A stretch of DNA of 59,431 nucleotides, filler included, from Streblomastix strix (Eukaryota), in the NCBI GenBank assembly GCA_008636045.1. It is 3 parts of 3 records of this genome, joined end to end, with 100 filler letters (N's around TTAATTAATTAA, not from the genome) between each part and the next. Parts side by side here need not be neighbours in the genome. Positions count along the whole stretch, not along the records: positions 19,864 to 39,601 come from SNRW01000489.1; 2 more parts are not named here. One strand, 5' to 3'. The notes below the pieces were generated by a model, which worked only from the letters and a program-made list of their open reading frames with translations, did no database searches and was not told where the DNA came from. Numbering within the stretch: position 1 is the stretch's first letter; every line of letters starts with the position of its first letter. This document shows, one piece after another, positions 3,851 through 58,088 of the stretch. The translations under genes and the position numbers were made by a program.

Positions 3851-4520
3851 TGGCTATGACATTTTTTGTTAAAACTCCATGCTAAAATTATTATTAAAAT
3901 TATGTGTATCCATTATTTGCTGTTATATATTGTTATAAATTCATGTGGGGACTTATTGGAGATATTTTTTAAAAAGCTTTTTTAAACCGTTAATTATTTA
4001 TTTTAATTATTTTATATAAGGGGGTTGATATAGGTTATTTATTTTGCACATATTAGTCTATGACTTTGCAAAGCAAGTAGTATATGATGGTTATTTATGC
4101 AATAACTTCAAAAGGTATTAGTATTTATAAAAACCACGCAAGTTCTTTTTTTTAAGTGATGGTTTAACCATTACAATAATATTTTCGAACAAAGGCGTTA
4201 GCCAGCTGTGAGAAAATTTTATAAATTGTAAGGCCAAAAGCTTAAAAAATGAAGGAGTGGGAAATTTTTATAAAACTGATGCTTTTTTGAAGTTAGGGCA
4301 TAAATCACCATTATATACTACTATTATGATTATTTTTTATTCATAAATTAATTTTTATTGATATTTTAATAATTCAATCGCAAAAAATATGAGTTAGTAA
4401 ACGAATGAAGACGTTCAGTTAGTAGAAACATCGTAATATTCAATAAATAGCAATCATTTTTCTTTAATTTATTTCTTAGTATTTATTTTATATCTTCATT
4501 CTACTGATATATTCAATCTT

Positions 4521-15879: not shown

Positions 15880-17863
15880 TCACTGAGGTTAAATAGCTCC
15901 TTTTGCAAGCTCACCAATAACATCAATATTTAGTACCTATGGCATTGAACTATCATCAAATACGATTCTAACAAACGCTTCACACAAGTAATGCATCATT
16001 GGTGTAATAGATGCTTTATTAGGATCATGATATGCTCTAGTTCCAATGAATTATTTGAAATCATTTTAGTTCTATGATGGATTTATATTAGTTGTATCAA
16101 TAATTCCTTTAGTCAAATTTCCCTACAAAATAACTTATACATTAGTTCTAGCACCTAAATTTGAAGAGTTAAATCCTCGCATAAATGAATCATCAGTTGC
16201 CAATTTCCATGCAAGCATATATTTATTAGGATAAAGTGTTCTAATAGCTTTACTTCCACTGGACAATGTTGTTAAATAGAATAGATTAGCTGTTTTATAT
16301 TAATCGGAATTATCTATCCTTCCATAGTAATGTGTCTTTTCATCAATATTCAAGTACTCGAATGTAAGGGAATGATACAGATCTGATTGTGCACTAACAA
16401 CATCTTAATCAACGAAGCAGTCAAACATTTATCCATTAGTTGCTTAGTTTAACGATTTATATGGCTATGGGATAACATTGTTCTAATCAATAACTAGATT
16501 AAGTCCTGTGAATAATACAGGGAAAAACCATGTAGGATATTAGGGCATAGCAAATGTCATAAATGGAGACTTTATTTTAGAGAATGACATAATGCTTTAC
16601 ATTGATCCACTTGTTTTATCAAAACCACTAAATGGAAAGTTCGATGATTATGTTCTAAATACTTATGTAGGAAAATTTATGATTTTTTTGTTATTGAATT
16701 ATACTAATTATAGCTTCTTCATTTTCAATATTGAAGCATACGTTTTATATCTCTAATGTATCAAATTTAGCGGTACCAATCTAAAAAATTGAATTTTGTG
16801 GTATCTTATCACCAACAGCAGCATTTTGCATATTTACGATTCTTACATTATATGTTTAATACGATAGATCAGTAGCATCATCTCCGGACAAAAGATAAAC
16901 AATATCAGGTTTCTCTGCAGGGATCATGTGATAAGCTAAATGGTTATTTTATATGGTATCATTTTTGTTAAGCTATACAATCTTCAAATCTTATAGGAAA
17001 TCTTATATCCATAATTGTAGATGTAATGTTCCATAATTACGTGTAAGAATAGCGAATGAATTAAATATAGGATTTAGTTAATTAAGATCAAGTACTCCAC
17101 TAAATGTAATATCGTTAGGAATTCTGTAATAGAATGGTGTTACAAATGTAGCAGCAGTTGCTTATCTATCAATTTCACAAAGTGGTATATCAATAAATAT
17201 ACCACAATGACGTTTTCCTTCAATTATACTTTCTAGTGGTGATACGCTAACGCTATTTTTAGTGCACAAATCACTAAGAGAATTTCCACTAATTATAGCT
17301 TATTCTCTTGCATAGATAGCTGATCCCCATAGTGCTGTTGCATCTTTCAATAGTTAGAATTAGTAGAATGGTCCGCACGCAGTAGAGAATCCAATCCAAA
17401 ATTATAGATGTTTTGATGATTCAATCCCTTAAGCTGATTTATCAAAATATCCTTATGACGCTTATGACATATTTGTAGTCCAATCAGCTAACGGATCTTC
17501 TTTACCATTGAAATTAGTTCGTGCAATTAATTTTGCTTTAGTATCCCAACCATCATATGTTTTATTTAATTATATTGCTAATGTGTTTGCAGGTATTGTG
17601 ATTGTCCAATTTACTTAACAAGTTTGAACCATTGAACATGCCGATTTACCTCTTGTTCCTAATGGTGCTCTAGTATATTTAACTCCACTAGATGTTAGTT
17701 CAGTAATTGGAGAATCGAAGAAATTTTGCTTTGATATTTCAAATGATTGAAGATGAATGGATAATGTTTTTAATATTACTCAAAGTTACATATATCCACT
17801 AACGTAATCAGAATGCGCTATTTTCGCTAATCGTCCAAGATAATCACTAGATTTGAATGATAT
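15880..17863 (-). pseudogene. Putative major capsid protein (copy B; start ATA, +1 frameshift near 17785)
   Basis: ~660 codons, homologous end to end with 33558-35500 (SF.S.DYL.RL.K..HSDYVS; CGPF; FMTFAM.QYPTWFFP; LAWKLATDDSFMRG.NS). Beta-rich, present in three elements. Confidence 0.6.
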
Positions 17864-17928: not shown

Positions 17929-18135
17929 ATGGGTTTCTTCTCTGGAATAGCAAATATTGGGTCAAAAATATTAGGTGGCGTTAAGAAAGCAGCATAATTG
18001 GTTGCACCAGCATTACATAAAGTTATGTCTACAATATCAGGTCCTGTTAATATGATTCACCCCGCTATTGGAGGTGAACTAGGTGCAGGAGCTAATCTCG
18101 CAGGTGCTGTTGATAAATTAGTTAATAAACGATGA
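17929..18135 (+). CDS. Amphipathic 68-aa peptide, adenovirus protein VI-like (copy B)
   Basis: MGFFSGIANIGSKILGGVKKAAQLVAPALHKVMSTISGPVNMIHPAIGGELGAGANLAGAVDKLVNKR*. Head-to-head with the MCP; homolog at 35534. Confidence 0.75.
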
Positions 18136-18161
18136 TGACAGCGTAATTTATTTTTGAAGAA

Positions 18162-19763
18162 ATGAATGCTTCATTATCCCAGCAATAAATCCGTACAGTT
18201 AGACAACTTATCACTAACGATATAGCTTACTACATTCAATATTAGAAACAAGGTAATTCTAGTGGAGGAATGATGTCAAATGAAGAGTATTAATTATTCA
18301 TAGATAATAACAATGCATTAGTCTATGCCGCTAATAATTAAATCATTGATGGAATGGCATCAGATTACGCATTAAAAATAGAACCTAATGGATTATTAAC
18401 AATAAAGAATTTGTAGGTGATTAATTTTGATTTTGTTGCTTAGATTAATTAGTTGATTAATTAAGTGAATTTACTATAACAATCAATTGGAACGACTGAA
18501 TAGGATATCATTGATATAAAAAATGATATTGTTACCATTAATCAGGAACTATCAAGATAAACACATTTTCGAGGATATTATTTATTGAATACAGATATAT
18601 AAAATTTACCTAATTCCGCTAATGGTGATTTTTCATTTAGTGCAGAAAGTCGAACAGTTTGGATGTATGATTAAAATTGGTATAATAGTGGAGATATAGT
18701 ACCTGATCAAGTAACTCCTGCAAATGATGCAACTCCTCTATCTGATGGTACAGCAACTGCGGGAATTAGTACAGAATATTCACGTGGAGATCATATTCAT
18801 CCATTAAATGTAACAACTACTATACCAATTAGCGATTCTGCTAGTGGATCAGTTGGTACAGCAAATTATTATACTAGATCTGATCATTCTCATCCTCTCA
18901 ATATAAAAACTTCTATTCCTCCACAAGATAGTGCTAGTGGATCAGTTGGTACAACTAATTATTACGCTAGAAACGATCATTCACATCCCATTAATGTAGA
19001 AACTAATGCTTCAAATATTCCTGTCGTTAATGGTGTTGGTGCAAATGGATCATCAGCTTTTTACGCTAGACAAGATCATGTTCATCCACAGTAATTAACG
19101 TATGATGGAAATGTAACAGCGACTAAATTCATTAAGACAGGAGGATTAACGACAGAAGTATTATGCGCCAATGGTGATACAAAAGCATTATCAGATATTA
19201 TTAGTAATTATGTTGATTTAACAACTAACTAAACCATTACTGGGGTAAAAACATTTGATTCATTTAAGAAGACTGATGGCACGAATCAATATCTATAATT
19301 AGCAGATGGAACAACTAAACCAATTATTTATGCAACTAGATCAGACAACATAACAAAATCCATATAATACGTTAAATTATGTACTTTTAACCCATTTTTT
19401 TAGAATAACTGTATGTCAGTTGAATTTAGTGTAAGAGGAAGAAGTGGCCTTGGAGTATTTTAATTTCATCAATTAGCCACTACTGCAGGATTATCCGAAT
19501 ATTATTACCATTTATAGCCTAATTTATAGAGCTGTATGTAAGAAGCATATGCTTTATATTATGGATCAGGAGCTACAAGAACGTGCGATTTATGGATTCA
19601 ATTATAATAATGGAGTAATGACGTGGTAATAGATTATACGAATAGCGGAACAGTAACTGTACTTATAACTAATATATTAACCTCAGCTCCAGTTGATGCT
19701 TTACCAACAGATTATGTAGATATGTATTAATTTACTCCAAATCTATAATTTAATGTTAAGACT
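18162..19763 (+). CDS. Long fibre protein with phage tail-fibre-type YxRxDHxHP repeats (3'-truncated by gap)
   Basis: Coiled coil, four G....Y(S/T/A)R.DH.HP repeats, and TKFIKTGG...ANGDT / QTITGVKTF shaft motifs. Homolog at 36780-38572. Confidence 0.75.
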
Positions 19764-19863
19764 NNNNNNNNNNNNNNNNNNNNNNNNNNNNNNNNNNNNN
19801 NNNNNNNTTAATTAATTAANNNNNNNNNNNNNNNNNNNNNNNNNNNNNNNNNNNNNNNNNNNN
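19764..19863. other. Assembly gap with artificial TTAATTAATTAA linker
   Basis: N44-TTAATTAATTAA-N44; identical structure at 39602-39701. Confidence 0.95.
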
Positions 19864-26632: not shown

Positions 26633-26672
26633 TTTTTTCCCTGTATAATAACTACCTGAAATTAACCTCTGA

Positions 26673-26859
26673 TCAAACTTTTAAATTTTTTGAAAAAATA
26701 AACAGAGGTGCAATCTGCCTTCTCGCCTTTGGCAGATTTCACTTTGTGAACTAGCTGACTGAAAGTTAGAGCTATAATTAACTGAAGATCAACCTCTTAA
26801 CTAATTTTGAAAAATAAAAAGTTGGTGCAATCTGCCTTTTATCTGGTTGAAAGTTAGCG
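26673..26859 (+). repeat. Element-C cis-motif, two tandem units (forward)
   Basis: tcaaac...ttttgaaaaa(a)taaa...ggtgcaatctgcctt...gaaagttag. Inverted partner at 32828-32966. Confidence 0.8.
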
Positions 26860-26998
26860 TGAAATCGAGCCAGCAAATTTGCAGGGTCAAACTTTACATA
26901 TCTTACTTCCACAGGCGTAATTTATAGCTGCCTCCTATATTGTTTTGAAGATTGAGTGCCAATTGATACCTAATTATTCCTCGATCAATTAAATTGTT

Positions 26999-29900
26999 TC
27001 ATTCATCGACATTTATTGTTGGCTAAAGATCTATATAATTTGTTGCGGATAGTTGATGTATGAATGGCGCAGCCAACTAGCTATTGGGTAATAATATCAT
27101 TTTAGTGTGTATACCAGTTAGGCCATTTTTATTTAGGGATAATTTTGACATAATTATATCTTTCTAACCTAAACGAGTATTTGTACACTTCATAATTTTT
27201 CCATCAATTGTATCTAATATATTTTATTTAGTTATCACATTTTATGATTAATTGATCCCTTTTAACTTAATTATTTCCTTCTTGGCGTTGATATAGTAGT
27301 TTTTTGGGGATAATGCTATCATCACATCACTTTTTTTTTCAGTCGCTAATTCTAATAACTTCTTTTATTCAGTTAGGTCATCAGTTGTTGGAAAATAATA
27401 TTTAGCGTTAGTATCATAAAATTATTGATCAGTAATTATGTGGTTAAATCCCTGATTAATCGGTTAATTAATGTTACCTGCAGCTGCGAAGTACATTGAA
27501 TCAGTATCTTCTTCAATAAAATGAAACCTATTTTTATCTAAGCACTTATACATAAAATTATATATGAAATTAAGATACCAATACTTTGCTTTATCTAATG
27601 TGAAATAAGCTTCCTATAATAGTGTTGTACATTTACATTTATCTGCATTTAATTATACTGCGTAAAGATTATCGTCCAATTAGCGTTCATTCATAAAATT
27701 ACCAGTCAAATGAGAAATAAATGTGTCCGCTTTTGATCTTAATTTTACATTACTAAACTTCTCAGTGTTCATCCCATCTGACCAATAACTAGCGTTCAAC
27801 ACTATTTTACAGAATTAATCCAATCCCTTATTATTAGATTTAATAGCATATATTCGCCTATTCATAAATGTGTTAACAAATGAATTAAATTTATCGTGTT
27901 TGGTAAATAAAATAAGTTAACTTATGTCATCAATTACAAAATTACATGTATCAATTAAGAACCATAAATAATAAGAACTGAAAGACATAAATTAATCGTG
28001 AGTGGATAATAAATTGGTTAATTTCCGTTCTTATTTACCTACGTTAATATTATTATTTTTCATAAAATTATAAGTATAACTTCCAATTGTTTACTCATTA
28101 GTAGTGTATGTTAAAATCCTCAGAATAGGTGGAAAGTTAATGTGTTGATTAATATCCTAAATATGGCCCTTTAATTGTAGCGATAAATAATTAGCCAGCT
28201 AAAGTATATCAAGTTGGAGAATTAATTATATTTAAACAACGTTATTTATTTTATTCATTATCATTAATCACTTCTTTAACTGTTCCTGACATAAATAATT
28301 TATGATTAGTGTACGTATTTAATGGGTGAAATTAACTGCTCATTAAAGAGGGATATAAAGAGTTGAAATCCAGTCCTATAATATTAGTAACAACATTATC
28401 TGTTTCAATTACTTTCACCTACTCCTCAAATACTAATTTTTTTTATTTTAGTTTAATTAGCAATATTTATTAGATTCATTACATTATTTAATCCACCTGT
28501 TATACCATCTCTTAAAGTTTAATATACTTATTATTTATTATTTGTTGTAGGTAAATTATATTTTTAACAATATTTTTTTAATTATATCAGTAGCTTCATT
28601 TCTTGATCGTTCCTATTACTTTTGACCTAGTTACAATATATGCAGCATTATCTAACATTATTCTTAGTGAGAGATAAGGAATTATTTATTCGATCTAATG
28701 TGGGCTTATTTTTAAATGTAAATTATGTTTAACAAATATAACAGGGCTATCTAAATAATTTTTGGAAGTAATCATAATCACTTTCATTCACATTATTGCC
28801 CACGGGTCGATGGGCAAATTTATCTTAGGAAATATACCCTTCTACTTTAGCTTTTCAATATTAAGGTGTAAGATAGAATGGTGGATCAAACGTATTGATA
28901 CTATAATCATCATCTAATTTAAATTCGTTATAGGCCATAGAAAATTTGACCGCATTAGCGCAACTGGTCATCGAGATAAATTAAAACATATTCATTTTAT
29001 ATTCAAAGAACAGATTAATTAAATTTTTTATTGTTTCAACCATTAACGAGGTATCTAATATATTATAATGTTTCAAATAATCTCACCTGTTATTGAATTA
29101 CTTATAATCTAATAAGTACTATTTATATTCTTTATCTGTTATAGAACTATTTTTCAACGTGTTGGCAAAATCAGATTAATTAATGGAGGTAGATTAAGAC
29201 AGCTATTTTTCATAGTCATCTCCCATTAGATCGTAAGGAAAGAGGCCCTTACTTTACTGTTAGTTTGAGAAGTTGATAACAAATTGATTCAATGTCATTG
29301 GTGGTGCTACATATAAGAATGCGTCTAAAAATTTAAGTTTAACCGATAAATTATTGTGTGAAATAATTAACTATTTACAGAATTAAGAAGTACCCAAATA
29401 GCTAGTTATTTTCCATTAACTTGAGGATAAATATGGAAATAATAAGGATATATCAAACTTAGCGGAATTATATCCGAGGATAGGAACTTCGATTGAATAG
29501 GCGGATAGTGTCATCATAATTGTTATCGTGTTTAATTTAAACTGCTTCTTTAAATATTTAACTTAACCATTAATTTACGAAGTTATCTTATCAATTATCG
29601 AAATAAATAGATTTAATACCCTTAGAGGAATAAATAGTGCTGGCAACTGATAAGGGGATTAATTTAGATATTAATTTACTATCTTTACCAAATTCAGTGA
29701 TTTCTTTTTATTCATATGTTTCGAAATCATAAGTTATAAAGTATTAAGTTGGCTTAAAGTCATGTTCTCTATTATTTGCGAGTAAATAGCGATAGGTCTT
29801 ATTTTACATAATATGTGGTACGAATGGACGTTGAATGTTATCCAACATTACTTATTTCTTAATTTAATCTTTACTTAATCTACACTTATCTATATGTTTA

Positions 29901-31276
29901 GCCATGTTCTCTTTAGTGCGTGAATCAACTTGAAAACAATGATTTTAGCAAATTGGGCAAAATAATAGTCCAGTTAAGCGTTCTTTATCTGTTACCAATA
30001 ATGTGTGGATATTGATACCATTTAATTCCTCAGATTAGATAAGTAATAAATTTATTTCGTTATCTCCTTCAAGCACCTCTGGTGCCGCCAACGAAGTTTG
30101 TTTCGGGAAAGATTAGGCCAAATAATAGCGAAAAGAACTGTCGTCCTATTCATAGGAAAATAAGTTAACAGATAAGTTTAAGTGTTTATGGATTAATTAT
30201 ATATCTGTTGCATAATTGAAGCCCTCGAATATTCTTGGGTTAAATTCCCCATAAAATAGATTCTTTATTTCCTTCATCTTTGCAAGTACTTATTTTTCAC
30301 TGTATCTTTTTTCCTTACTATCTTTCAACTAATATCTGGCAATTGATTCCAGTACACAGATATTAGGATAAGGTGAGTTAACATATCTGAAGCATTAGCG
30401 CTTCTTGGATAGATGTAGCTTGATACTCGGAATAGATTTACCACTGATTGGAAGTAGATATGTTATCGCGCACATTGTATAAATTGTAATATATTTCTCC
30501 TTTATATCAGTTAATATACGTTCTCGTATAGAGATAATTAGTGATTCAATATAATTTCTATATAGTTCAATATCTTATTAGTTACGTATTAATATTGGGG
30601 CTCTTCTTTCGGTCATTGATTTTCTAGGGATAATATATCCATAAGTAATCCGTTAGTCGTTATTTTTATCTCTATCTTTCCTTTCATATATGAATCCAAA
30701 ATCAATTGCTAACTTATATAGTTTATTTTTCATTGAAGTATGAATTGAGTCGAAGAAATCGTATATATTTAATACGTTGGATATTTAATTATTATAATGA
30801 GCTATTACTATTGGGTTTCGTTCAACATGGATCCAATCGTGATAATTAGATTTAGCATCATTGAGAACCTTATTGAATTCGTCTAGATCTGCGGGATGAG
30901 CTAACAATAGTACATCCTCATTAGCTAACTTTAATAATTTACGCTAACGTGTTGATTTAATTTGTTAATTAATTTCCTATAATTGGGATTAGAATATATA
31001 CTATAATTTTGGTTCTAATTACTACTTTATCTAGTTAAAGTCTATTTTTGTTTATATTGGTTAACGTTAATAAAATTAGTTATCTAATCTAGTGTCAAGG
31101 TCAGATAAAAATTAAGTTAGAACATCATAATTATTCCTTGTTCCTTTGCGTGGAAAATTATTTTTATCAAGTACTTTCTTTAATTATTACTTCAATAATT
31201 AATATGCTTTGCTATTTTTCAATTGTGGGGATATAATATGTAGTAAATTTAATAATTAACCTTTTGATAATACCAT
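26999..31276 (-). pseudogene. Full-length Polinton-type pPolB (~1425 codons) with putative terminal protein/vOTU, Zn finger, exonuclease, HNH-like insert and polymerase; frameshifted
   Basis: NICVLESIAR/IHTLL, CPIC...H...C, ExoI ITYDFET, ExoII GYNSAKFD, KGLFPY, ExoIII YLKHYNILDT, motif A GLDFNSLYPS, motif B KIVLNASY, motif C EDTDSMY. Confidence 0.9.
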
Positions 31277-31378
31277 TTATAGTAATATAAAAATAATTTT
31301 TATTTTATCTAGATAAGTTAAAGTTAAATTAATAGGGTACGCTCTTTTCGGAGCTAGCTGTGGTGGTTAATTTCACCA

Positions 31379-32080
31379 TCACCCTTAGATCAATAATCCA
31401 GCGAAGTTAAGTATCTAATTTTAACCCATATATATTTCTTTTTATATGAAAACATGTATTTCTTAGATATCACAAACATTTATCAAAAATAATAATTTTA
31501 ATAAAATAAGACCAACAAATCTTTTGAACTTGGTATAACAAATTTAATGACGTTAGCCATTAGTATCCTTAGCGTAAACAAAGTGAAAACCGCCTTTTGA
31601 TTAATTAATATGTAATTATTTAAATTTTAGCCCATTAAATAAATAGAAAATATCGTTATGAAAGTACAAATTCTCAAATTCCCAATTACCATACTCATTA
31701 TTCACTATGCTCCCGTCATCAATATGGTCAAGATACACTTATTCAATATTATCTCGATGTTACTCTCTATTTAAACTATTTTAGCTAGGTGTAGCCTATC
31801 TAAGATTAGCTAAGGAATTATCTGTTCTGATCTATGATCTATGATCGACCTGAATTTTATATTCATGGTCATCGTTAGGAATGAATTATAGCGCAACTAA
31901 TCGATGTAATCCATATGTACGATTATTTAATGTAGTTCTCATATATCCATTAGGAGTTTGACTAATAGTTGGTTCAAACCTGTCAGCTATTCGTCTAATA
32001 CGCAATGATTGTGTGGTAGTTATCTCGAACTCAGGTTCAACATCAAGTTGGACAAATTATTATTGGGTATTATCAGTCAT
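31379..32080 (-). CDS. HNH homing-type endonuclease (NUMOD4/HNH_3-like); 3' end uncertain
   Basis: GYMRTTLNNRTYGLHRLVALQFIPNDDHEYKIQVDHRSQIRTDNSLANLRQATPSQN. Confidence 0.85.
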
Positions 32081-32122
32081 TTAACTAGTGGATAAAAAAA
32101 TAAAAAAATAAAAAAATAATTT

Positions 32123-32791
32123 TCAATTATTAAATTATTTAATTAATGTTTCGATGTACATTTTAAATTCAAACTTATTATTATCATACACTTGAACATA
32201 TTAGTTTCGTTTCCCATTATCATTTATTTTTAGCTACATATAAGTATCATTATCGAGATTATTATTCCAAATATTCTATGTTTCATCTAATACGTAGTAA
32301 TCACCTAATATTCTATTTTTATAATCAACCAAATCGGTTAAATTTTTATCTTTCATTTCTTCTTTAGATCTTATTTAATAACTCTTATTTGTATTATATC
32401 GATTATAGTCAAATTAATCCACCCATAATAAGTTATCAACTGCGTCATTCTCCAGATCGTTATCTAAGTGGAATATTTTATTTTTATTAATATCTTAATT
32501 TGGTATAAATTATTTAGCTACGAGATAACTGAAGGACAGATCACAACGTTTGCCGTTGATATCGTTCAATCTAATTTATCTACCTATAAGTCCACCGCTT
32601 TTACTTTTCTTTGATTAGGAATTAATTTCCCTATCTAGCTTTGTATTCCAAACTATTAATTAATCGTTAATCAGATATCTGGGGTAATCTATTATTGATT
32701 CATAACCTTAACGTTATTTTTCATAGCTAATTCTGTTCATCTTATCTTATGTTGATTCCTTATCTGTTATATATTTATCAAGGAATGTCAT
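32123..32791 (-). CDS. Divergent HNH-like paralog (222 aa)
   Basis: YLVAKQFIPNQDINKNKIFHLDNDLENDAVDNLLWV. HNH_3-type pattern, but the catalytic residues look eroded. Confidence 0.65.
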
Positions 32792-32827
32792 TTGTTTTCC
32801 AGATAAAAAAATAAAAATAAAAATAAA

Positions 32828-32966
32828 AAAGGTGAATTGCACCGCTGTTATTTTTTTCAAAATTATTTTAAGTTTGGGTGGAGGTCTAATTTTAGCTCTA
32901 ACTTTCTGTCAGCTAGAAGGCAGATTGCACCTCTGTTTATTTTTTCAAAAAATTTAAAAGTTTGAC
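32828..32966 (-). repeat. Element-C cis-motif, two tandem units (reverse)
   Basis: Reverse complement reads tcaaacttttaaatttttgaaaaaataaacagaggtgcaatctgccttctagctgacagaaagttagagct..., near-identical to 26673-26772. Confidence 0.85.
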
Positions 32967-33042
32967 CTGACATTAATTACCACGTTAATTCAAGTGCTAA
33001 TCATGGTTAAATTTCCATACTAACTTTTTTTATCATATATAA

Positions 33043-33474: not shown

Positions 33475-33541
33475 AAACTTAAAATAATTTTTAAATTTAT
33501 TTCGTTGGTGCGATTCACCTTTTATCTGACTTAGAATTAGC
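33475..33541 (+). repeat. Element-C cis-motif, single unit (forward)
   Basis: aaacttaaaataatttttaaatttatttcgttggtgcgattcaccttttatctgac. Inverted partner at 38690-38750. Confidence 0.75.
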
Positions 33542-33557
33542 CTAATAATTAATGTTA

Positions 33558-35500
33558 TCAACCTGCCACAATCATACTACCACCAATCTCTCCAATTACC
33601 TCTAAATTTAATATTTATGGTTCAGGGGCATCATCGAACATTATTCTAATAATTGAATCACACAAGAAGTGAACCAGTGGTGTCTACGCAATCTATGTTG
33701 AAATAGGGTAGCTTCTAGTTCCAATAAATCCAGTGAAATTATTTTAATTCTCTGTAGTGGCGGGATCAGTATCGAGAACCTTAAAATTATCTATAATTCC
33801 ATTTGCAATATTATTATGGAGTATCACTTGTATATTAGTTCTAGCACCTATCTTCGTACTATTACAGCCTCTCATGAACGAGTCATCAGTAGCTAATTTC
33901 CATGCTAGCATAAATTTATTCGGATAATACGTTTTTATAGCTTTAAATCCCCTGAATAGTGTCGTATTAAAGAATACGTTATCTTATTATTCTGCGGGCT
34001 CATCATCTTTTCCGTATTAGTAATTTTTATCATTTATATTAATGTTTTCGAAAGTAAGTGAACGATAATGATCTGATGGCGCTGATACAATATCCTAGTA
34101 AACAAAACATTAAAATTCGAACCATTAACATCAGCAGTTAGTGCTTCATATGGATTAGGTGTCGCATGTTTTTGGTCAATTATTAAATCAATCTTCTTCA
34201 TTAGTAGTGGGAAGAACCATGTTGGATATTATTACATAGCGAATGTCATAAATACACTTTTTATATTAGAGAATGACATTATAGTTTTCATTTAAGTTCC
34301 TGACATAGGATAATTGGTTGATTGGGTCTTTAATACTTAAGTTTGAAAGTGGATTATTTTTTACGCTCTAATCATATCTATAATCGCCATTTCGTTCTCC
34401 ATAATGAAACACAAATTATGTATAGATAAATTATCAAAATAAGCCGTATCTATTTATTTTATACTATTTTAGGGGTAAGTATCAGCATTACCTAGATCTC
34501 TACAATTAATCAATCGAACAGTATAGTATTCACTTGCAGGTGGATCACTATCATCTAGTAAAGTAAAAATATCTGGTTTCACCGCTGGTATCATTGCGTA
34601 AGCTAAACAAGTATCAAATGATCTGAATTTATTTAACCAAACTACTTTCAAATCTTATAGGAAATCAGTCATCCATAGTTACAAATATAATGAAGCATAG
34701 TTTCTAGTTAGTACAGGAAATTCATTAAATATCGGGTTAAGTTAATTTAAGTCCATTACCCCAGAGAAAGTAATATCCTTGGGATAGCGATAGAAATAAG
34801 CAGTGGTAGTAGAAGCAGCAGCAACTTCGACTAACGGTAAATCGAGAAACACACCGTAATGGCGTTTGCCCTAAAATATACTTTCTAATGGTGAAACAGT
34901 AACGCTATTATTAACGGTTAGGTCAGATAGTGAATTGGAACGTATTATAGCCTGTTCTCTAGCGTAAATAGATGTTTCCCATAATTTAGTGTTATCTCTA
35001 CATATAGCTATTTATTAGAACGGTCCACATGCTATTGAAAATCCTAACCAAAATTTTAGTACTTCACCAATATTAAACTTTTATGTTGTTTATTTTATAT
35101 CTGCTGCTAGTGCAGTTGTTGCTGTCTTAGTTCCAATAAAGTTTGTTCTAGATCTGGCAAATTCTATGTTAATTAACAAATCTTTTGTCGTGTTTACTCT
35201 ATTTAATTATATTCCTATAGTGTTAGCTGGTATAGTAATTATCCAATTAACTTAGCAAGCCTAAATACAACAACAAGTTGCACTTCCTCTAGCCCCTAAT
35301 TGAGCACGAGTTTATCTAGTACCACCTAAAGTTAAAGTATTTCTTGGTTTGTCAAAAAATTCCTATTTGGATAATGTAAGTGATTAAGTTTCAATAGTCA
35401 AAGTTCTTAACACTTCATTTAGTGCAGAGTGTGATGAAACATAATCAGAATGTGATGCTTTCGATAAACGAACTAAATAATCTGACGCGTTGAATGACAT
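33558..35500 (-). pseudogene. Putative major capsid protein (copy C; one 1-nt deletion near 34112)
   Basis: MSFNASDYLVRLSKASHSDYVSS... ~648 aa; homologous to copies A and B; in the same element as pPolB and ATPase. Confidence 0.6.
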
Positions 35501-35533
35501 TTATTGATTGAACTAAATTTTAAACTAATATAA

Positions 35534-35737
35534 ATGGTATTTTGGTCAGGTCTCAAGAATTTCGGCTCAAAAATATTAGGCGGCGTAACATCAGTGGCTA
35601 TATGGGTAGTTCCTGTTCTTCATAAAGTTATGGGTGCTGTTTCAGGGCCATTAGGTGCAATTAATCCGACTGCTGGTATGATATCCAAAGGAGTAGGTAG
35701 TGCAGCAGGAATGGCAAATAAATTCCTTAATCGATAA
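35534..35737 (+). CDS. Amphipathic 67-aa peptide, adenovirus protein VI-like (copy C)
   Basis: MVFWSGLKNFGSKILGGVTSVAIWVVPVLHKVMGAVSGPLG...NKFLNR. The homologous stop position has TAA where copy B has TGA. Confidence 0.75.
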   Translation: MVFWSGLKNFGSKILGGVTSVAIWVVPVLHKVMGAVSGPLGAINPTAGMISKGVGSAAGMANKFLNR

Positions 35738-35771
35738 AACATTAATACACGAATTATTTTTATATTTAAAT

Positions 35772-35969
35772 ATGGTAGTTAATAAGAACTTTGGTTTAAA
35801 AATATTAAATGGAGTCAAATAAGCAACAGGATATGTTCATAATACTTTAGCCAAATTGCTAGCTTCAACATAGATGAGAAGTGACGCTGTTATTATAAAA
35901 CCAACTCATATCTAACCTAAACCAATTGATTATGTACACTAATCGAAAAAATTAATTTAAGGTTAGTGA
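35772..35969 (+). CDS. Tandem paralog of the pVI-like peptide (65 aa)
   Basis: MVVNKNFGLKILNGVKQATGYVHNTLAKLLAST...*. Shares KNFGxKILxGV with the upstream gene. Confidence 0.55.
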
Positions 35970-35988
35970 AAACATAAATTTAAGCCGC

Positions 35989-36634
35989 TAGCATTTATGT
36001 CACTAACATAGTTGGTAATGTAGTTAATTTTTTCTCTAATTAAATGGAATCATTAATAATATAATTGAAATAATTAATCAAACAATTATCCAAAAATAAT
36101 ACTCTTTAGAGCGGCAACATAGTTGCTATATAAGAAGATCTAATATCTGAAATAATTTAATAGTTAAAGGACTTAATGTAGCCCTAATTAGATTAACCAT
36201 TATTGTCCTAAGAGTTGAAAAAAATTTAATAACAATTTGATCACCAATAATAAAAATTATCATTTTTTAATAAGTATGCAGAACAAGAGTAGTACCTTAA
36301 TAAAATTTACGCTTAAAATAATCACAAATGTATTGATTAATATAATTAGTATAAATAATTAAGTAGTACTCAAGCTGAAAAACTTAAACGTTATATATTA
36401 ACAGAGGCAAATGATGAGGAAAAATAAATATACAATAATTTTGTATCTGATGTTGGAATTTAATAGTTCAATAATTATTACTCGTTAAATTAAATCTGAT
36501 TAACTCAATTATTTTATGCTATTATCGAAAGGTAATTAATATAATTTATCATTTCCTAACACTTATTTCCAATATATTCCCCTTCATCCTCTATGTTTGC
36601 TTAAGTAGCATTTATGTCGCCAACAGAGTTGGTA
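35989..36634 (+). repeat. 29-bp direct repeats (35989-36017, 36606-36634) flanking one ORF
   Basis: tagcatttatgtc(a/g)c(t/c)aaca(t/g)agttggta x2. Confidence 0.75.
36044..36499 (+). CDS. Viral hypothetical Gln-rich helical protein (151 aa)
   Basis: MESLIIQLKQLIKQLSKNNTLQSGNIVAIQEDLISEII...*. Open under TAR=Gln. Confidence 0.5.
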
Positions 36635-36779
36635 CTTATTTTTTCACTTTCCTCACATTTAATAGGTTCAATTAGAGCTTAATAAATATAATATATCTCA
36701 GTATTGTTCGCGTTAATCTTTTACCCAAGTTTGATCGCTACTTATAACAACTAATCCATATTTAATCATAATTAATTTT

Positions 36780-38572
36780 TCATAATACTCGACCGTTGAA
36801 TGTTAATGTGTTTCCATCAGCGGATATTCGTAATCCTCTATCGGTTGCAACATCACTTGCTTGCATAATAGCGAATTAATTTGTATTTCCCATATGACCA
36901 ATAATCCATTATCCTTCTACTGTTCCACTAGTTTATTATGGATCAGCTCCCACTGTCACAAAACTCCATTAATTACTCGTTGATTTACTTATTCGTATTC
37001 CTTCACTAATGTTTGAAGTATTTGGATTTACCTAAAATGCACCATTAAATATTTTTGTACGATTAATTGTTAATTCAGTTCCAACATTAACCAATTCATT
37101 ACCATTAAATTTTATTATTGAACTATCACTATTAATATTTAGGCCAACACTATGGTCAGCATAACGTTGAGATGATGGGTTAATTGTCAATGCTCTATCA
37201 CTTGTTTTACTTATTTCCTATTAACCTAATTGAGTAGTATTTATAGCTGTAGTTGAACAACCTAAATATGATGATGAGTATTCTGTGTTATAGTTTCCAA
37301 TTCTAATACCATTATTAAATATAGTATAAGTTCTACCTGTTGGATTAACTTATAACATATTACTTATTATTCCACCATTACCTAAATCATAAGTAATTGG
37401 TATTTGTGTACCATTTGATACTTCTGAGACTACATCTTATGTTAATATTTCTATTATTCTATTGGTATAATAAGTGCTTTAATCTGATATCACTATCGTA
37501 ATGTTACCAGCTGATTCTAATCTAACATATGCCGAATAAATTGAAAAAGTATTTGATCAAGAATGATTGTGAAATAATTAATTTACACCATTATCAATAT
37601 CATAGTATGAACTAACTTTAATTGGAGCTGTAAATATTCCATATACAGTATTGATTCCATTAACGGTATAATAACGCACTAACCTAATGGTTTGAACAGC
37701 ATTGTAAGATGAATATAATTTAAATTCAATGAATGAATTATCATTACTAGCCCCAGCAGGAAATATACATAATCTAATCCATCCACCTGCACTAGCGTTA
37801 TATATTCTTGATAATTTACTATCTATAGTAGTTGTATCTCCATTCGCTAATAGTATTTATTGATTTGTTCCACCAATATTAATAAATTTAGTAGCTGTTA
37901 CATCCCCATTCTATGTTAATTATTGGGATGGATATGATCTCCTCTACTATACGATGTACTAATTCCAGCACTAGCTTCTCCATCAACTATAGGCGATTCA
38001 TCACTAGCGGGTGTAACTTAATCAGGAACTAATTGGCCACTATCATTCCAATTTGATTCATACATCCAAACCGTATGACATTCTGCAGAGAAGGCAAAAT
38101 CACCTGTAACGCTAGAGGTTAGATTAGTTATATCTGCGTTAAGTAAATAATATCCTCTAAAATGTGTTTATCGATCTAACTCCTGCTAAATTAATGTAAT
38201 TGATTAATTTATATTATTAATATCCGAAGACTATTGTTTATATTCTTATTGCTGTTAATTTATCTATTATTATATTTAAACTATTTATTATATAAAATCT
38301 AAATTTAACACTTATAAATCCTTAATTATTAATTTACCTTCAGTATTTATTTTTAAAGCAAAATTGCTAGCTTGCCCATCAGATATATATTATTTATCGG
38401 TATAAACAAACACGGATTAATTATCTATGAATAGTTAGTAGTTTTCATCTTGTATTACAACTGAATTATTACTTTTATTTTTCACATACTACAAGTAATA
38501 TTATATCTATATCGAAATTAATTAACTAATAATAGATCTTTATTAATTGGTGAGAACTTATATCTATTACAT
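36780..38572 (-). pseudogene. Long fibre protein (copy C; frameshifts and an in-frame TGA)
   Basis: N-terminal half homologous to the 18162 gene (QTHFRGYYLLN...PDQVTPA; one DHxHP repeat). Different distal part with two GIRI...FN modules. Confidence 0.75.
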
Positions 38573-38689
38573 TTAAGTGTACAAAAATAAATACAGTTAA
38601 TGTTGGGCTAAAGAGGGGGTCCTGCCTAATTTGGGCTATACAAATGTTAACCGCGAACTTTTGCGACTAGTTCTTTACATTAATTATTT

Positions 38690-38810
38690 ATGTCAGATAA
38701 AAAGTAAATTGCACCAACGAAATAAGTTTAAAAAATAGTTTAAGTTTGACTTTTGGGCTAATTCAAGGGCTTATTCAAGGGCCAATTTATTGGGCTAATC
38801 ATAGGCTAAT
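38690..38810 (-). repeat. Element-C cis-motif, single unit (reverse), plus short gggctaat-like repeats
   Basis: Reverse complement: tcaaacttaaactattttttaaacttatttcgttggtgcaatttactttttatctgac. Confidence 0.75.
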
Positions 38811-39601: not shown

Positions 39602-39701
39602 NNNNNNNNNNNNNNNNNNNNNNNNNNNNNNNNNNNNNNNNNNNNTTAATTAATTAANNNNNNNNNNNNNNNNNNNNNNNNNNNNNNNNNNNNNNNNNNN
39701 N
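39602..39701. other. Assembly gap with artificial TTAATTAATTAA linker
   Basis: N44-TTAATTAATTAA-N44. Confidence 0.95.
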
Positions 39702-40798: not shown

Positions 40799-43700
40799 TC
40801 ACTTTTTTTCTGCAACCTGTTACCTCTTCTCTAAATCTTCCTTGAATTATTTGACAAGCTCAGATTTCTTTTGATTTTCCCTCTGTTCGTAAAGCTTTAG
40901 CTATTCATTGTAGTATTGCTTCAATCTCTCCTCTCTTTCATGTTATTTCAGCAATACGAGTGTTTCGCGTTTGGTGATCTGAAAAAAAATAATGTTAATA
41001 TATAATAATTTATTATTTAAAATTGTGTTATTATATAAATTAATTGAATACCTCATCTCTGCGCATCAAATCCTTAACATCTTGTGGTACAGAGGAGACA
41101 ATGATTGAAATGAGTGCTGCAGCCAAAATGAGAACATTCTCCACACCGAAGAAGATGATGACTGATACCATCTATCCTGTTGAAGTTAGTTCTTAATCTC
41201 CAATAAACAAAGTTGTGAGTTAAGAGCGGAAACAGAAGAACATAATTCCTAAGTTCATAATAACTGCAGCATAAGTCATGAAGTTTAGCACAGGTAGGAA
41301 GGACCCTATACTTGCACTGGATATTGGTATGGGGCGTTGCATAGAGAAGCAGATCTTCGCTGGATCTGATCGGAGCTGAATAACATTTCCTACAAATGAA
41401 AAGAGTGCAGCCAATGGGAAGGCTGGTGCAAAGAGTGTGATGAATCCGAATTGCATTACTAATTCCTAAAAGTCATCAAATGTATCATATTCTCCCATTC
41501 CCATTTCAACTTCTGTTTTTGTAGGAAGACTTGCCATCTCCTTTTCAATTTAGAGAAGTTCAATTTTCTGTTATCTTAGTTTCTCAAGCTGTGCGGGTGA
41601 GATTGTTCGAATGCGCTTCTTCTTCCTCTGAGTTTATTAACCATTATTCTGATTTGCATTTTATTAATTTTCTGCAGTTTAATTCTTTTTCTATTATCTA
41701 CCTCTTACTCCTCCTTCAGTTGGTGGCGCATATGCATTTGCATTCTGATTAGCTTCTCTCTGGAGTTGAGCTTCATGCTCTTGATTCTCTTTAAGTTATG
41801 TGACCATGGCTCTCACTTCTTCTTTCTTTTTACGAATGCTTCTTTTCTTCATTTCTGTTAAGGACCATTTCAAAAACACTATAGCCATTGGCAGTATGTT
41901 TGAGAGAACTTGAGTCTTGAGGAAGTAGATTATGAACATGGTTATCAAACGAGTCCTCAAATCACTGAATGATTCACTGACATCATCATTGAATGGATTA
42001 TGGGAGAATACAATATAGACCATAGAGAAGAATTGGTTAATTACTGCAGCTGATACCATTCTGAAAATGATCATGTTATCATATTAACTCTAAGTTTTGT
42101 AGTTCTCCCATTTGTTACAGGCAGTTGCAACAAAGCTGTAGATGAATCCAAAAATGATAGATACTACAGCATTCAATATGGAAGGAATAAGATCTATAAT
42201 AAATTCTACTACAAAATGTAAGTCTGTACGACCACCTTTTATTGCATCAATGATGGGATTTTCATAATAGGTCAGGAGAAAGATGACTACAATATCAATT
42301 ATAACCATGATCAATGAAATAGGGATGGTTATCATATACTTTTACATTCTCTTACTCGAAGGATATTCTCGCTCCAATTTTCCAGTAATCTTCGATCTCT
42401 CAATCTTCCCATCAAATTTTGGACGCGGTTTTTCTATTTCTGAAAAGTTGAATGTGTTCCATGAATAAGTTTTCCTTGCTTCATTACGCTTCCATGCTTT
42501 TGTGAATATTGCAGACCAAATACAAACAATAATAGAGAATATTGATCCAGAAAGAGCCATTGCTTAATCACCAGATAATATTTCCTGTACAATGAAAACA
42601 ATTATTCCAATAATCGTAAGAGGAATGAGCCATTTCGTGTAGAATCCAAGATAGACAAAGTAAAGAGCGACCTTCTCTCCAAAGTATTGTGCAATCATAT
42701 TTGATGGTTGTTTCTTTAAAGACCAGATCCAACGCTTCTTAAGAGCTTCCAATTAATCTTCCTCATGAACTGGGAAGAAAGCTTTGCAATATCCCATAGC
42801 CAGAGCTCGCATAATCAACATGTCTCCATATCGTATGCTTCCAACAACGTCTTCTTCTTCAACCATAATATCAGTAAGAATATCATAGATGAGCTTCTTC
42901 CTCTCAGCTGAATAGAAGAAGGTCTCTGGTTCATCAATACCCAGAAATTCACCTCTCTATGAACTAACAAAATCCACCATATCACTTCCACCATCAACTT
43001 TAACATTCTCAGGTTTCAATAACTTCTTGAAATGCTTCAACTCGGCTTAGATGCAAAGAGCTTCAAAAGTTGCACTGATGTTGACAAAGATCAATTTCTG
43101 ATCTGTGCTGACTTTCTCTTCCAAAAGAAGCTCCCTCTCTCTCATTCGCCTCATTATAAGATCTTTGACTACTACTTTTTCACGATCACTAATTCCTTTG
43201 ATCATCTTAAGAAGTCCACAACATCTCGTGTCTTCATCATCTTCCTCAATAATCTGGATACCTAAATTATCATCTGGATCATCTTCTACACTTTTATCCT
43301 TTGGATCTTCGTTTTCAAACTACAATTCTCCATTTTCATCAACTTTCCCATCTTTTGACACTTTTAATTTACGATATATTGGATTCTTTTGTTTTTGCTG
43401 AGCTTTTTACTTCTTCAGGCGATTCCTCTTTAGAATATGATCTTCAATGACATCATCATCACCAGCAATACCCAATTTTTAATTCATCCTCAATGTAGTA
43501 AGTGTCCCATCATCAAATTCTTTATTATTAATACGTTTCTATTTATATTCTTCAATCTTCCTCATCCGTAATCTCTCCTGATAATCTTCACGCTTCCTTG
43601 CTTCTCTTTCCATCCTAGCCTTCCTCAAAGCAAGATCATCTTTCATACTCTTCATTCCTTTCTCTGAAGCATCTTCAGGCGACACAAGATTCTCAAAAAC

Positions 43701-44663
43701 AAGCACAAAGTCGGTGATCAATATTTTCTCCTTATGTTCCTTCATCGCAGCAAGGAGATCCTTCATCTCTAATTTCTGACGCATCTTCCCTGACCCATCA
43801 TCTACCAATGCATTTCTTCTCCTTTAATGAGCGCGCCAACATCCTTATTTGAATAATTAATAAAGAAATGATTGAAATAATTATATATATAATCAAATTA
43901 TATTAAAAGTTATTCATTAAGTTTATTTTTTCAATACTTTGAATGATCATTACAGCGTGAACTTAAGCTGTAATTTTCCTGAAGGCATCTCCCCAAATTT
44001 TTCTTACAGAATAACCTCTAAATTAAATAATATATTAATTAAACACATGAAAAATAATATTTATTTAAATTAAAATTACCTGTATGTTTTTTGAATTTTT
44101 ATTGCTGCTTCATTTTCTTTTCGTGTTTTTTCATCATACATATTAGGTGAAGTTATCGGAGATTACTAAAAAACGGAGAAAATATTAACGATAAATATTA
44201 ATAAAGCAAACTGGTAATTAGACAGAACATGCAGCACTTAGCTATTTGAGCCATTGAGTATATTAGTCCTTGGGTTTGATCTTGTGCATCTTGCGCCCAA
44301 TAACCAGCGAAATGGTCTTGTCATCATCTTCTTCAACGACATTCTGTACATCCATTAGATAAATATCTTTGACAATATCCTAAGAAAGCGAAAATAAGTA
44401 TGAAATATTGAATAAGAAAATAAGATTAAGTCATACAGTAGCACTTTCATCCTTATAATGGATCAGTCTATTGTCCTTGATGACTGTCCAAGTTTTTTAT
44501 TCAGAAAACAGTTTTCCAGTTGTAATTATATAAACAAAGCCCTTTAAAACGATTGCGAATGAGTAAATCGATTGCGAATGAGTAAAAACGATTGCGAATG
44601 ATTAAAAATAAAAATATAGTAATACAGAAGCGTGCATACACTAATCTTAGCTTACTACGTCAT
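40799..44663 (-). CDS. Anoctamin/TMEM16 protein with N-terminal PH domain and two IQ motifs (host, multi-exon)
   Basis: IAQYFGEKVALYFVYLGFYT, WENYKT, FDDFQELVMQFGFITLFAPAFPLAAL, MQRP...SIG. N-terminal PH-like exons and IQ motif AAIKIQKTYRGYSVRK. Confidence 0.9.
44548..44603 (+). repeat. Three tandem 19-20-bp repeats in the first intron of the anoctamin gene
   Basis: cgattgcgaatga(g/t)taaa x3. Confidence 0.85.
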
Positions 44664-50089: not shown

Positions 50090-50235
50090 ATAAAACATCA
50101 ATTAACTATTCGAAAATGGCACAAGAAATTGATATTGTTAATGAATGACTTTTGACTAGACTGGGTGGATTGAGTGGATCAAATCAAAAAATTCTATAAA
50201 ATGCTATGGCCAATTGGACAAATGGCCAGATTAAC
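50090..50235 (+). repeat. Element-D cis-motif (forward); partial extra copy at ~50018-50050
   Basis: aagaaattgatattgttaatgaatgacttttgact...aaaaattctataaaatgctatggccaattggacaaatggccagatt. Inverted copy at 52757-52912, direct copy at 57985-58088. Confidence 0.85.
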
Positions 50236-50261
50236 GAAAAATAAAAAAATTCAAATATTGT

Positions 50262-52637
50262 TCAAACGATGATTGATTCGCTGATGTCTTCATTAATATC
50301 TTGGTATTCTTCTCATAATCTATCATATAATTTTATTAAATCATCGTTTAATTTATAAATCCATGTTCGTTTTTTATTGATTTATTTTCCAATTCATTGA
50401 CATTTATTTTTGAGTTATAATTACAATAATTTTTCTTTAAATTCGAATGGTTTGAATTATAGTGAGATAGTGCAAGGCATTCCTTCCTTAAATGCTTAAT
50501 AATTTTATAAGATTACATCATCGAGCTATGAACGTGAAGTTCTAATAATATCTTTTTTTTCACATCAGTGAATGAAATTATTTATTAGTTCCAATTTTTT
50601 TATATCTCTATTCATAAAATATGTAATAAATTATTGTAAATTTCAGCAATGAAGCCATTAGATAAAGAAGTGAAATATTCATGGTCGTCTCTATAAACTG
50701 CTTACATCTGCATACAACATAACGTCTATCATTATCTTCAATCTTTATAGAGAAGTTGTTGTTGGTTACCATTATCAAATTTAATAAATTTTCTGATGTT
50801 CTTCGAGGTTATTTTTTTTTTATTTATTCTAATTTTATTATCTGTTATAATTGACTTCAATGCATCCATGTTCGAAAATCTTGTTTCTCCAAATTTTTAA
50901 GTTCATTGGCTATTTCAAGTATTATATTTTCAATGACATAATTAAATTAACCTGTAAATTCATTAATATCCATTATATTTTTAATTGAATAACCTGCTAA
51001 TAATTCACATAAAACATCCGTGATTCTGTTCTTGCCTATACATTAACTGCCTTATAATATCAATGCCACATCTGATTTAACACTTGCATTTTATAAAGCA
51101 AATGCAATCCAATTTAGAACGGAATTATGTATGTTTTCATCTTCAGCTGCAATTTTTTCATATATTAATTCTAAATTATCATTAATTAGGTCTTCATTAA
51201 CAGAGGATAATTATTAATATTTATAGACTTAAAATATACAGAAAAAGTCTTATTATTCACTCATAAATTTTATTGCTCTCTACGCAAATAAAGGATTATA
51301 TTTTTCTAGAATATGGTTTAATGATATTTTCTTTTATCCATCTTCCAATAATCTAACCATTTATAACTAATCATAAGCTGCTGTTTTATTTATGAATTAA
51401 AATTTATTCTTTTTATTTACTGCATTGTATTAATTAACTATAAACACTTAATCTTTAACACATGGAGCATAATGTAATATTTTAGTTAAGTCCTGTACTA
51501 TTGGTTCATATCAATTATTTTAATATATACCGTTTTATAACTTTTTTTATACATTTCGAATAATGAGAAACTATCTTCTAAATCAATTTTTTACATTTCA
51601 ATTTAATTATTACATCTTTTTTCCTTCACAAACATAGGAATTATATACTCTTAATAATATTTCGGATTGTATTTTTTAATTATTTTTAAAGAACAAATGG
51701 ATGTGGTTATTTTTATTCATATCTTTTTTAGCAATATCAAATAATTATTTTGCTCTTTCAGTTAAATTGTTTTTATTTATATTGTTTTAATATTTCTCTT
51801 CAATAGATTAATTATCAATTCCTTCAACATTAATTATACTATTATTTACTGCAAATAATGGAAATAAAGTTATTTCATTATTTAAATTATGACTTTATGA
51901 ATCATTATGTATTTCAAGATCACTAATTCCTTTACATAACATAATCACAAAATCATTTTTCAAATCGATTAAACCTGTTGGTTGTAGTAGTGGTTTATCT
52001 TACACGTTATGTTACTCCAATTAATTGGACATGACCTATTAATTAACATCTAAGTCTATTTCAAATTTGTTCAAAATTTGTTCTAAATCACATATGTTTG
52101 TATTATTTAAATAGACATTTATTGTTTCGTATTAATATATAACTTTAATTTCTCCAATTTATTCGTGCTAATCTTCCATTAGTTTAGTTGCTTTAACTCT
52201 ATCACGTATTTTTGAACCACATTACATAATCCATCTTTATTTATCATTAACACATTTAAATATATCTAAGTTAAAATTATTACATTTATAAACTTATAAA
52301 TTTGATGTTCCCTATAATTCAAATCCGTTGATATCACAATAAATATGTAGCCCTCCATGTGCTGTTTTGATTAATCCCACATTTTAAGGCATTTTTTCAA
52401 CGATTGATTCTCGAATTTATTTTTATATTAATTTATCTAAATTTTTATTTATATCAATATCAACAACAGCTAGATTTTAACATTTTGGTATATCGATTAC
52501 TCTACCTGGACATGTTTTACCAGTTTTATCAATGATTAGAAAATTATTATAATCATAAGTGTTCACATACAAATTTTAGATACGTTCTTGAATTGTTAAT
52601 GATTAACTAGTCTGTGCTTGATTGTTTTTGACTCCAT
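50262..52637 (-). pseudogene. Prim-Pol (AEP) primase fused to D5-like SF3 helicase; frameshifted
   Basis: LAVVDIDIN (DxD), KTAHGGLHIY, Walker A LQGSQ(C)IGKN, Walker B ANE, motif C and Arg finger VTNNNFSIKIEDNDRRY. Confidence 0.85.
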
Positions 52638-52756
52638 TTATATATTGTTAAAAAGTTGAATTATTAAAAATCAAACTCTTTTATTTTTTAATTAAGTTTA
52701 AAAATTTTAACAATTGATTTTTTTATGCATATGCTTTATTTTTATAGTTACATTAA

Positions 52757-52912
52757 CAATCTGGCCATTTGTCCAGTTGGCTATAGCATTTTATAGAATT
52801 TTTTGACCCGATGCACTCGATGCACTCGGTGCAGTCAAAAGCTATTCATTAACTATATCAATTTCTCCTGTTAAAATCATGAACTTTTGATGGATATGAA
52901 TTAATGTTTTTA
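52757..52912 (-). repeat. Element-D cis-motif (reverse)
   Basis: aatctggccatttgtccagttggctatagcattttatagaattttttgac...agtcaaaagctattcattaac is the reverse complement of ~50140-50235. Confidence 0.85.
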
Positions 52913-57946: not shown

Positions 57947-57984
57947 AAAACATAAACGAAATCTGTGAAATTAATACGATAAAT

Positions 57985-58088
57985 ACGAATAGTTAACGAA
58001 TGACTTTTGACTGGATTTGGTGGATTGGGTGGATTGAGTCAGAAATTTCTATAAAAAGCTGTGGCCAACTGGATCAATGGCCAGATTG
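57985..58088 (+). repeat. Element-D cis-motif (forward) upstream of integrase
   Basis: gttaacgaatgacttttgactggatttggtggattgggtggattgagtcagaaatttctataaaaagctgtggccaactggatcaatggccagatt. Confidence 0.85.

Follow-up and report, generated by a model that had tools for sequence, protein, structure and literature searches.

In Streblomastix strix, a small peptide gene present in two copies (B and C) in the stretch of DNA analysed here (59,431 nucleotides including filler, from assembly GCA_008636045.1; hereafter the window) is a real gene that lies divergently beside a putative major capsid protein (MCP) gene. On balance, we read its product as a likely virion-internal, membrane-active peptide, whose predicted N-terminal helix would breach a host membrane at entry without a protease. 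In the best reading of the comparisons below, the peptide would work like adenovirus protein VI (pVI), yet it falls outside the pVI family. Judged by sequence, its closer known look-alike is the C-terminal tail of capsid proteins from a Sputnik-related virophage clade.

The peptide gene and its family

Both small ORFs lie where the original prediction had placed them (Table 1), and the divergent arrangement beside the putative MCP gene that it described holds for each copy: 33 nt separate the start of copy C from the opposite-strand ATG of the putative MCP gene, and 65 nt separate copy B from the broken start of its own neighbour. The two copies are 46% identical. Across 67 codons, 16 are identical, 15 differ synonymously and 36 non-synonymously; differences peak at third positions (36, versus 24 and 26 at the other two), and there is a synonymous excess, with 15 synonymous differences among 31 unchanged residues. 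The proposed amphipathicity was likewise borne out, the hydrophobic moment (muH) of residues 3–20 being 0.53 in copy C and 0.58 in copy B, values reached by only 8 and 4 of 2000 shuffles, respectively.

The neighbouring putative MCP frame uses TAA 18 times in 467 codons, so genetic code 6 applies; the TAA of copy C therefore reads as Gln and extends the product to 116 aa. Since copy C has no true code-6 stop, six other subtype-C models end at the shared ...NR, and Val replaces the Gly2 found in 86 of 102 Met-initiated models, this copy is probably decayed. The tandem paralogous ORF of the same unit lacks the aromatic start of the motif. It keeps the NFGxKILxGVK part, its C-terminal half is different, and its database relatives are P0083 and P0151.

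Table 1. Coordinates of the peptide genes and neighbouring features in the window
Feature	Position	Strand	Remarks
Peptide gene copy C	35534..35737	+	67-aa homologous part; code 6 reads through TAA to 35884 (116 aa)
Predicted amphipathic helix, copy C residues 3–20	35540..35593	+	Holds the motif common to virophage capsid tails and pVI
Peptide gene copy B	17929..18135	+	68 aa; TGA stop overlaps the next ATG
Tandem paralogous small ORF, unit C	35772..35969	+	65 aa; family HMM E=1.6e-6
Putative MCP gene copy C	33558..35500	-	Frameshift near 34100; label from UniRef names only
Putative MCP gene copy B	15880..17863	-	Broken: no ATG, internal stop, frameshifts
Fibre-like repeat gene	18132..19763	+	Directly downstream of copy B; enters assembly gap; putative fibre role
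Related fibre-like gene, unit C	36780..38500	-	In pieces
Left TIR of unit C	33475..33533	+	59 nt, 88% complementary to right arm
Right TIR of unit C	38689..38747	-	59 nt, pairs with left arm
Adjacent unit with inverted-repeat bounds of the same family	26660..32978		Polymerase-like pieces (putative pPolB) and HNH gene

A search with copy B returned 61 candidate clusters, all significant, of which 59 are named Streblomastix strix and two JGI. Profile searching over 1.84 billion representatives gave 95 matches to the peptide family, and a second peptide profile gave 51 among 3376 candidates. With the spurious entries P0130, P0136 and P0152 dropped beforehand, the pooled matches numbered 190, and setting 19 distant ones aside left 171 models. 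In these clustered database proteins, many of them decayed or mis-modelled, the 71 full-length models measure 68 aa in 42 cases and 69 aa in 25 (67 at 68–69 aa), with a median net charge of +6. The peptide is thus basic, Gly/Ala-rich and 68–69 residues long, and its median muH over residues 3–20 is 0.57, compared with 0.59 for virophage tails and 0.42–0.48 for pVI. Gly2 is present in 61 of 70 full-length models; we considered N-myristoylation at this residue, with which the Phe at the next position presumably conflicts under the PROSITE pattern.

Gene layout is recurrent. Gene models extended upstream contain the putative MCP in antisense in 17 of 27 cases and in sense in none, 21 of 34 models extended downstream run into the fibre-like family that follows copy B, and eight peptide–MCP pairs carry consecutive locus tags on same-length contigs. 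Neither Pfam nor PHROGs yielded a significant family for the peptide, Pfam MCPVI matched none of 47 family members, and IMG/VR searches with the peptide and putative MCP alignments returned no relatives.

The putative capsid gene and the surrounding elements

Several members of the neighbour family carry the UniRef name 'Major capsid protein'. The AlphaFold model of the putative MCP has confident strands in its first half and low overall confidence (pLDDT 38, best Z 3.3), and this model found no match in Foldseek viral, PDB or VIA-wide searches, so that fold comparison was uninformative and a double jelly roll was not confirmed by any of these searches; no Sputnik_MCP Pfam match and no profile match was obtained either. 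Among the putative MCP models inspected, 15 of 16 end near 626–676 aa without the peptide, most of them in a terminal Gly, and the peptide HMM matched none of the MCP-family models. We regard it as extremely unlikely that the neighbour is not a capsid gene, with the units being non-viral mobile elements and the peptide unrelated to virus entry. Uninformative fold and profile tests and units of only 5–6 kb would suit such an account; the UniRef names, the size of ~650 aa, the confident strands, the fibre-like and polymerase-like genes nearby and the same layout in free viral contigs all argue against it.

The putative capsid family, ~650 aa long, has at least 241 database matches and is represented in the window at 6–239 (+) as well as by the two copies in Table 1. 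The elements resemble the Metamonada-group endogenous viruses (PMC10120064) in being endogenous and in using code 6, and their database relatives are named Streblomastix strix. They differ in the capsid, the S. strix MCP in Table S3 of that paper not being the putative MCP described here, and three putative-MCP motifs found no match among the rows listed in its supplement. The putative capsid family may be a second, undescribed one in S. strix.

Unit C measures 5.3 kb and has its own terminal inverted repeats (TIRs), and the polymerase-like pieces, for which Pfam gave no match, sit in a separate TIR-bounded unit. This organization suggests segmented or modular elements rather than one 15–20 kb Polinton. 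The polymerase/HNH unit (26660–32978) and the capsid-module unit (33475–38747) stand side by side, 5–6 kb each, with their own inverted repeats of one family, nested extra copies of which occur at 26776 and 32827–32876.

Elsewhere in the window, a second inverted-repeat family is found at 50124–52866, 57947–58087 and 3800–3848, and the unit at 50124–52866 carries a degraded primase-helicase-like ORF (weak Pfam VapE-like/DUF5906 match). Degraded fibre-like repeats of the LLLLKADxTxLIDxY type, with a period of ~66 nt, occupy several frames at 53644–55706. A host anoctamin/TMEM16 gene of higher GC (40938–43784, minus strand; Pfam E=1.9e-106) lies between elements, placing them in a eukaryotic chromosome. 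The N-padded TTAATTAATTAA spacers at 19764–19863 and 39602–39701, identical to each other, mark joins, so adjacency across them is not real.

Comparison with protein VI and virophage capsid tails

As originally claimed, copy C matches eight of nine residues of WSGIKNFGS in PDB chain 6b1t_X; it matches all nine in the corresponding stretch of many other adenovirus pVI, and copy B matches six of nine in the same 9-mer. The match exists but is not significant on its own, pre-protein VI being the sole PDB match of copy C up to E=10 (E=3.5 over 13 residues). With the family profile this match was lost and the nodavirus gamma peptide was weakly matched instead (E=0.65); no peptide profile gave a significant pVI match in the PDB. 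Across 122 models, 17 share eight positions of the 9-mer, 41 share seven, 46 six and 18 fewer, and the exact form WSGLKNFGS occurs in 16. A pVI HMM run on the 1111 segments of the window detected copy C only (E 0.004), plus a chance match at 0.014. For the distant homologue P0145, pVI was the nearest named Atlas cluster (0.77), a lead only.

Profile–profile comparison aligned the family with pVI at 89.6% over 15 columns, and the second halves, compared with the motif removed, showed no similarity. PPxY occurs in none of the 71 full-length peptide models, versus 35 of 36 pVI, and the C-terminal protease-cofactor peptide (RRC end) is likewise absent from all 71; the comparison covers these 36 pVI, which look mastadenoviral as judged by eye. 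With ~15 matching columns that vanish from the PDB search under the family profile, unrelated second halves, no PPxY and phage proteins that outscore every pVI, the specific adenovirus link of the original prediction is not supported. What is supported is a conserved small amphipathic protein fixed beside a putative capsid gene, plausibly a pVI-like virion membrane peptide.

Both systems have a 9–15-residue amphipathic motif (W-S-G-[IL]-K-N-F-G), a gene beside the major capsid gene (putative here) and a proposed role in membrane rupture. They differ in length, complete pVI copies having 233–279 aa against 68–69 aa in the peptide, and in architecture: pVI (Pfam MCPVI, PF02993) carries an N-terminal propeptide that is removed by a cut at GG ahead of the helix, as well as PPxY and a C-terminal protease cofactor, and the peptide lacks all three. 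Adenovirus pVI is encoded on the same strand as the hexon.

As to the proposed cleavage site, a [ML]xGG site lies upstream of the helix in all 36 pVI, and a GG- or GSG-type site does so in all 14 virophage capsids; the peptide helix begins at residue 2–3, and ILGG (residues 14–17) falls inside it. Conservation of ILGG, also part of the original prediction, holds in so far as both window copies carry it and it is the commonest state, but it is weakly kept, [MIL]xGG occurring in 76 of 143 models overall and, where the model is full-length, in 43 of 71. Among the seven subtype-C copies with a native N-terminus, copy C alone has ILGG, the other six having ILHG, ILHD or ILYE. Gly16 is retained in 50 of 70 full-length models, whereas six further glycines that follow the motif start are each kept in 59–67. 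In view of its position and its variation within subtype C, an adenain cut at ILGG|V is not supported. An HMM of 35 adenain fragments found no match among the 1111 window segments (best E=0.26), a weak negative because the same HMM was also blank in four virophage loci.

It is accordingly hard to see the peptide as a minimal pVI orthologue cut by an adenain-type protease at ILGG|V, and we hold this to be very improbable. The lone PDB match of copy C, the 17 models with eight shared positions, the Atlas lead for P0145 and the majority state of ILGG are what such an orthologue would predict, and unit C may be a partial virus, so that a protease could lie elsewhere. Against them stand the confinement of the match to 15 columns with unrelated second halves, a site placed within the helix, the poorer retention of Gly16, the subtype-C variants, the missing PPxY and RRC end and the adenain search of the window. 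According to a 2026 preprint (10.64898/2026.06.19.733378), Gosseviruses are the only major group of Polinton-like viruses (PLVs) that has a core protease; a peptide that acts without protease would agree with this.

The original prediction had missed that virophage capsids begin their C-terminal tail with this very motif. In metagenomes, the family alignment had a single match, a virophage capsid gene (Pfam Sputnik_MCP_1st, E=8e-52), and 11 consecutive residues of one such tail (L031/L002) are identical to copy C. Scanning IMG/VR for the motif gave 51 loci, comprising 36 adenovirus pVI, four virophage capsid tails, eight tape-measure-like proteins and three spurious frames; the exact form WSG[IL]KNFG accounts for 42 of them (the 36 pVI, the four virophage MCP tails and two copies of one tape-measure-like protein). 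Within a Sputnik-related clade (L057–L070), the motif opens the tail in all 14 complete-tailed capsids, which represent 13 distinct tails, a 15th locus being partial. It stands directly behind GG in 10 of the 14; in the others, a GG- or GSG-type site is found a little further upstream. In the mature capsid of Sputnik, chain 3j26 stops just before the tail position. Searched against the PDB, the capsid profile of this clade matched pVI chains and nothing else besides Sputnik V20 (E 0.47–1.8).

Profile–profile comparison of the family with virophage tails gave 96.7% over 47 columns, or 19 columns when the target was cut to 50. The family/tail and family/pVI matches each beat 60 of 60 periodicity-preserving decoys, tests that overstate significance because the motif itself had served to find both the virophage and the pVI set. 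Among the 1111 segments, a virophage-tail HMM recovered both window copies, at E 1.2e-6 and 3.2e-6. Past column 16, direct similarity between family and tails is not significant (6 of 30 decoys reach its level); the second half of the distant stand-alone set scores 84% against virophage tails (0 of 30 decoys) and 96% against the peptide family.

Peptide and tail are alike in the opening F-[WLF]-S-[GN]-L-x-x-F-G, in helix moment, in a Pro-containing turn further along with a small-residue helix after it, and in their tie to a capsid gene. The virophage tail belongs to the capsid polypeptide, where it follows a Gly-Gly-type site and precedes a basic end, whereas the peptide is encoded by a separate, oppositely oriented gene. 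In mavirus, the capsid tail is cleaved at GG sites, and an amphipathic, possibly lytic helix has been proposed in its first fragment (PMC6048507); as given in the supplement of that paper, this fragment (MCPC1) lacks the peptide-family motif.

Descent, proposed role and implications

Common descent of the peptide with the virophage tail is plausible though short of probable, and common descent with pVI is rather doubtful; otherwise, the match would be convergent. To judge from profile scores, helices of this kind evidently recur. On the family HMM, a tailed-phage ORF reached 22.4 bits, the 14 virophage capsids at most 16.4, the 36 pVI at most 9.2 and tape-measure proteins up to 12.2, scores that depend on target length. 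The best PDB matches of a broader profile were designed coiled coils and tape-measure proteins. L001, considered as a relative, was rejected as a phage tape-measure gene.

Distant stand-alone homologues of the peptide also occur outside S. strix records, and an Atlas cluster of 310 members, with a few Parabasalia records, scored 0.88–0.92. A looser scan for motif-initial ORFs returned 33 IMG/VR loci, among them three PLV-like contigs (L102 and the near-twins L097 and L099); a fourth, L107, was included for its capsid similarity, not by the motif scan. All four have the ORF next to a presumed minor-capsid gene or at a distance of one gene from it, divergent from the presumed MCP, and L097 carries pPolB (Pfam E=2.6e-29). 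Only the L102 ORF matched the family over its length (E=7e-9); the L097 and L099 ORFs matched over 21 residues (E=0.006), and that of L107 was not detected. No significant similarity emerged when the putative MCPs were compared by profile, so the capsid labels in these four contigs rest on layout and on N-terminal patterns; the AlphaFold model of the L097 protein was unusable (pLDDT 31). L097 and L107 also have a second small amphipathic ORF of similar style (5104–5388 and 4335–4628, respectively, both on the minus strand), two or three genes downstream of the first, echoing the tandem pair of unit C.

The similar N-termini of unrelated phage proteins would suit a membrane-active peptide foreign to the virion, serving host exit or acting as toxin-like cargo, for which all motif matches would be convergent. 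Two of 47 members also match antimicrobial-peptide families weakly (E 0.17 and 0.34), and pore-forming genes are reported in these virus groups (10.64898/2026.10.13.758929), both of which point the same way. We consider such a function quite unlikely, however, given the constant position of the gene between putative capsid and fibre-like genes, which recurs in free PLV-like contigs, and the fact that the virophage equivalent belongs to the capsid polypeptide.

As an entry peptide carried inside the virion, the product would share its expression with the capsid gene through the short spacer between the two divergent genes, and would be packaged on the capsid interior with its helix shielded. 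Release on uncoating would then lead to rupture of the vacuole or endosome membrane. No maturation protease would be needed because the helix starts at residue 2–3, its start codon taking the place that the Gly-Gly cut occupies in virophage capsids and in pVI.

Alternatively, the peptide could be a virion protein serving as an assembly scaffold or cement, its helix packing on the capsid protein rather than acting lytically. A scaffolding role has been proposed for the whole mavirus tail (PMC6048507), and pVI, whose helix function has been described, binds hexon through that same helix (PMC8310329); the fixed linkage to the putative MCP also suits such a role. The Phe/Trp-led, Lys-rich helix at a free N-terminus, with a muH at or above that of pVI, speaks for membrane activity instead, as do the weak nearest neighbours, which are membrane-active (nodavirus gamma, E=0.65; cecropin, 0.78) and serve as leads only. 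A purely structural role thus appears unlikely to us, and membrane breach at entry remains the favoured function.

Among known systems, the nodavirus gamma peptide (PDB 1f8v_D) shares a helix-Pro/Gly-helix layout with the family in addition to its weak profile match. It is a short, capsid-derived, membrane-active peptide of an RNA virus, released autoproteolytically, and the likeness is best read as convergence. Small membrane-active proteins have already been proposed in Polinton virion modules (PMC8502044, 10.1101/341131). The 'cupiennin', PLA2X and GasderminX proteins of adintoviruses and Polintons (PMC8502044) are comparable as small predicted membrane-active products of the virion module, and adomavirus LO6 has moderate HHpred matches to pVI (10.1101/341131); these systems, which are likened to the peptide here by description only, differ in being animal-associated and in having adenain.

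A broader reading, which we place on the doubtful side, is that double jelly-roll viruses share one ancestral membrane-penetration helix, which has persisted in three forms. In virophages it would be joined to the C-terminus of the capsid protein and released at Gly-Gly; in adenovirus pVI it would lie behind a propeptide in a separate precursor beside hexon; and in Polinton-like viruses that lack a protease, these protist endogenous elements among them, it would have a gene of its own that encodes the already cut form. A full-text literature search, from which most subscription journals fall outside coverage, found no paper making this three-way link. If this reading is true, adenovirus pVI would have arisen from a capsid tail; the near-identity of virophage capsid tail, pVI and stand-alone gene provides a testable idea for the origin of pVI. 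Even if convergent, the resemblance shows that one sequence solution is strongly preferred among amphipathic helices borne by capsids.

Published proposals for how non-enveloped Polinton-like viruses cross membranes include lipases and SLATT pores (PMC12220804) as well as cupiennin-, PLA2- and gasdermin-like proteins (PMC8502044). ORFs as tiny as the peptide gene are easily missed, and the family described here adds a short, synthesizable candidate for membrane crossing by Polinton-like viruses.
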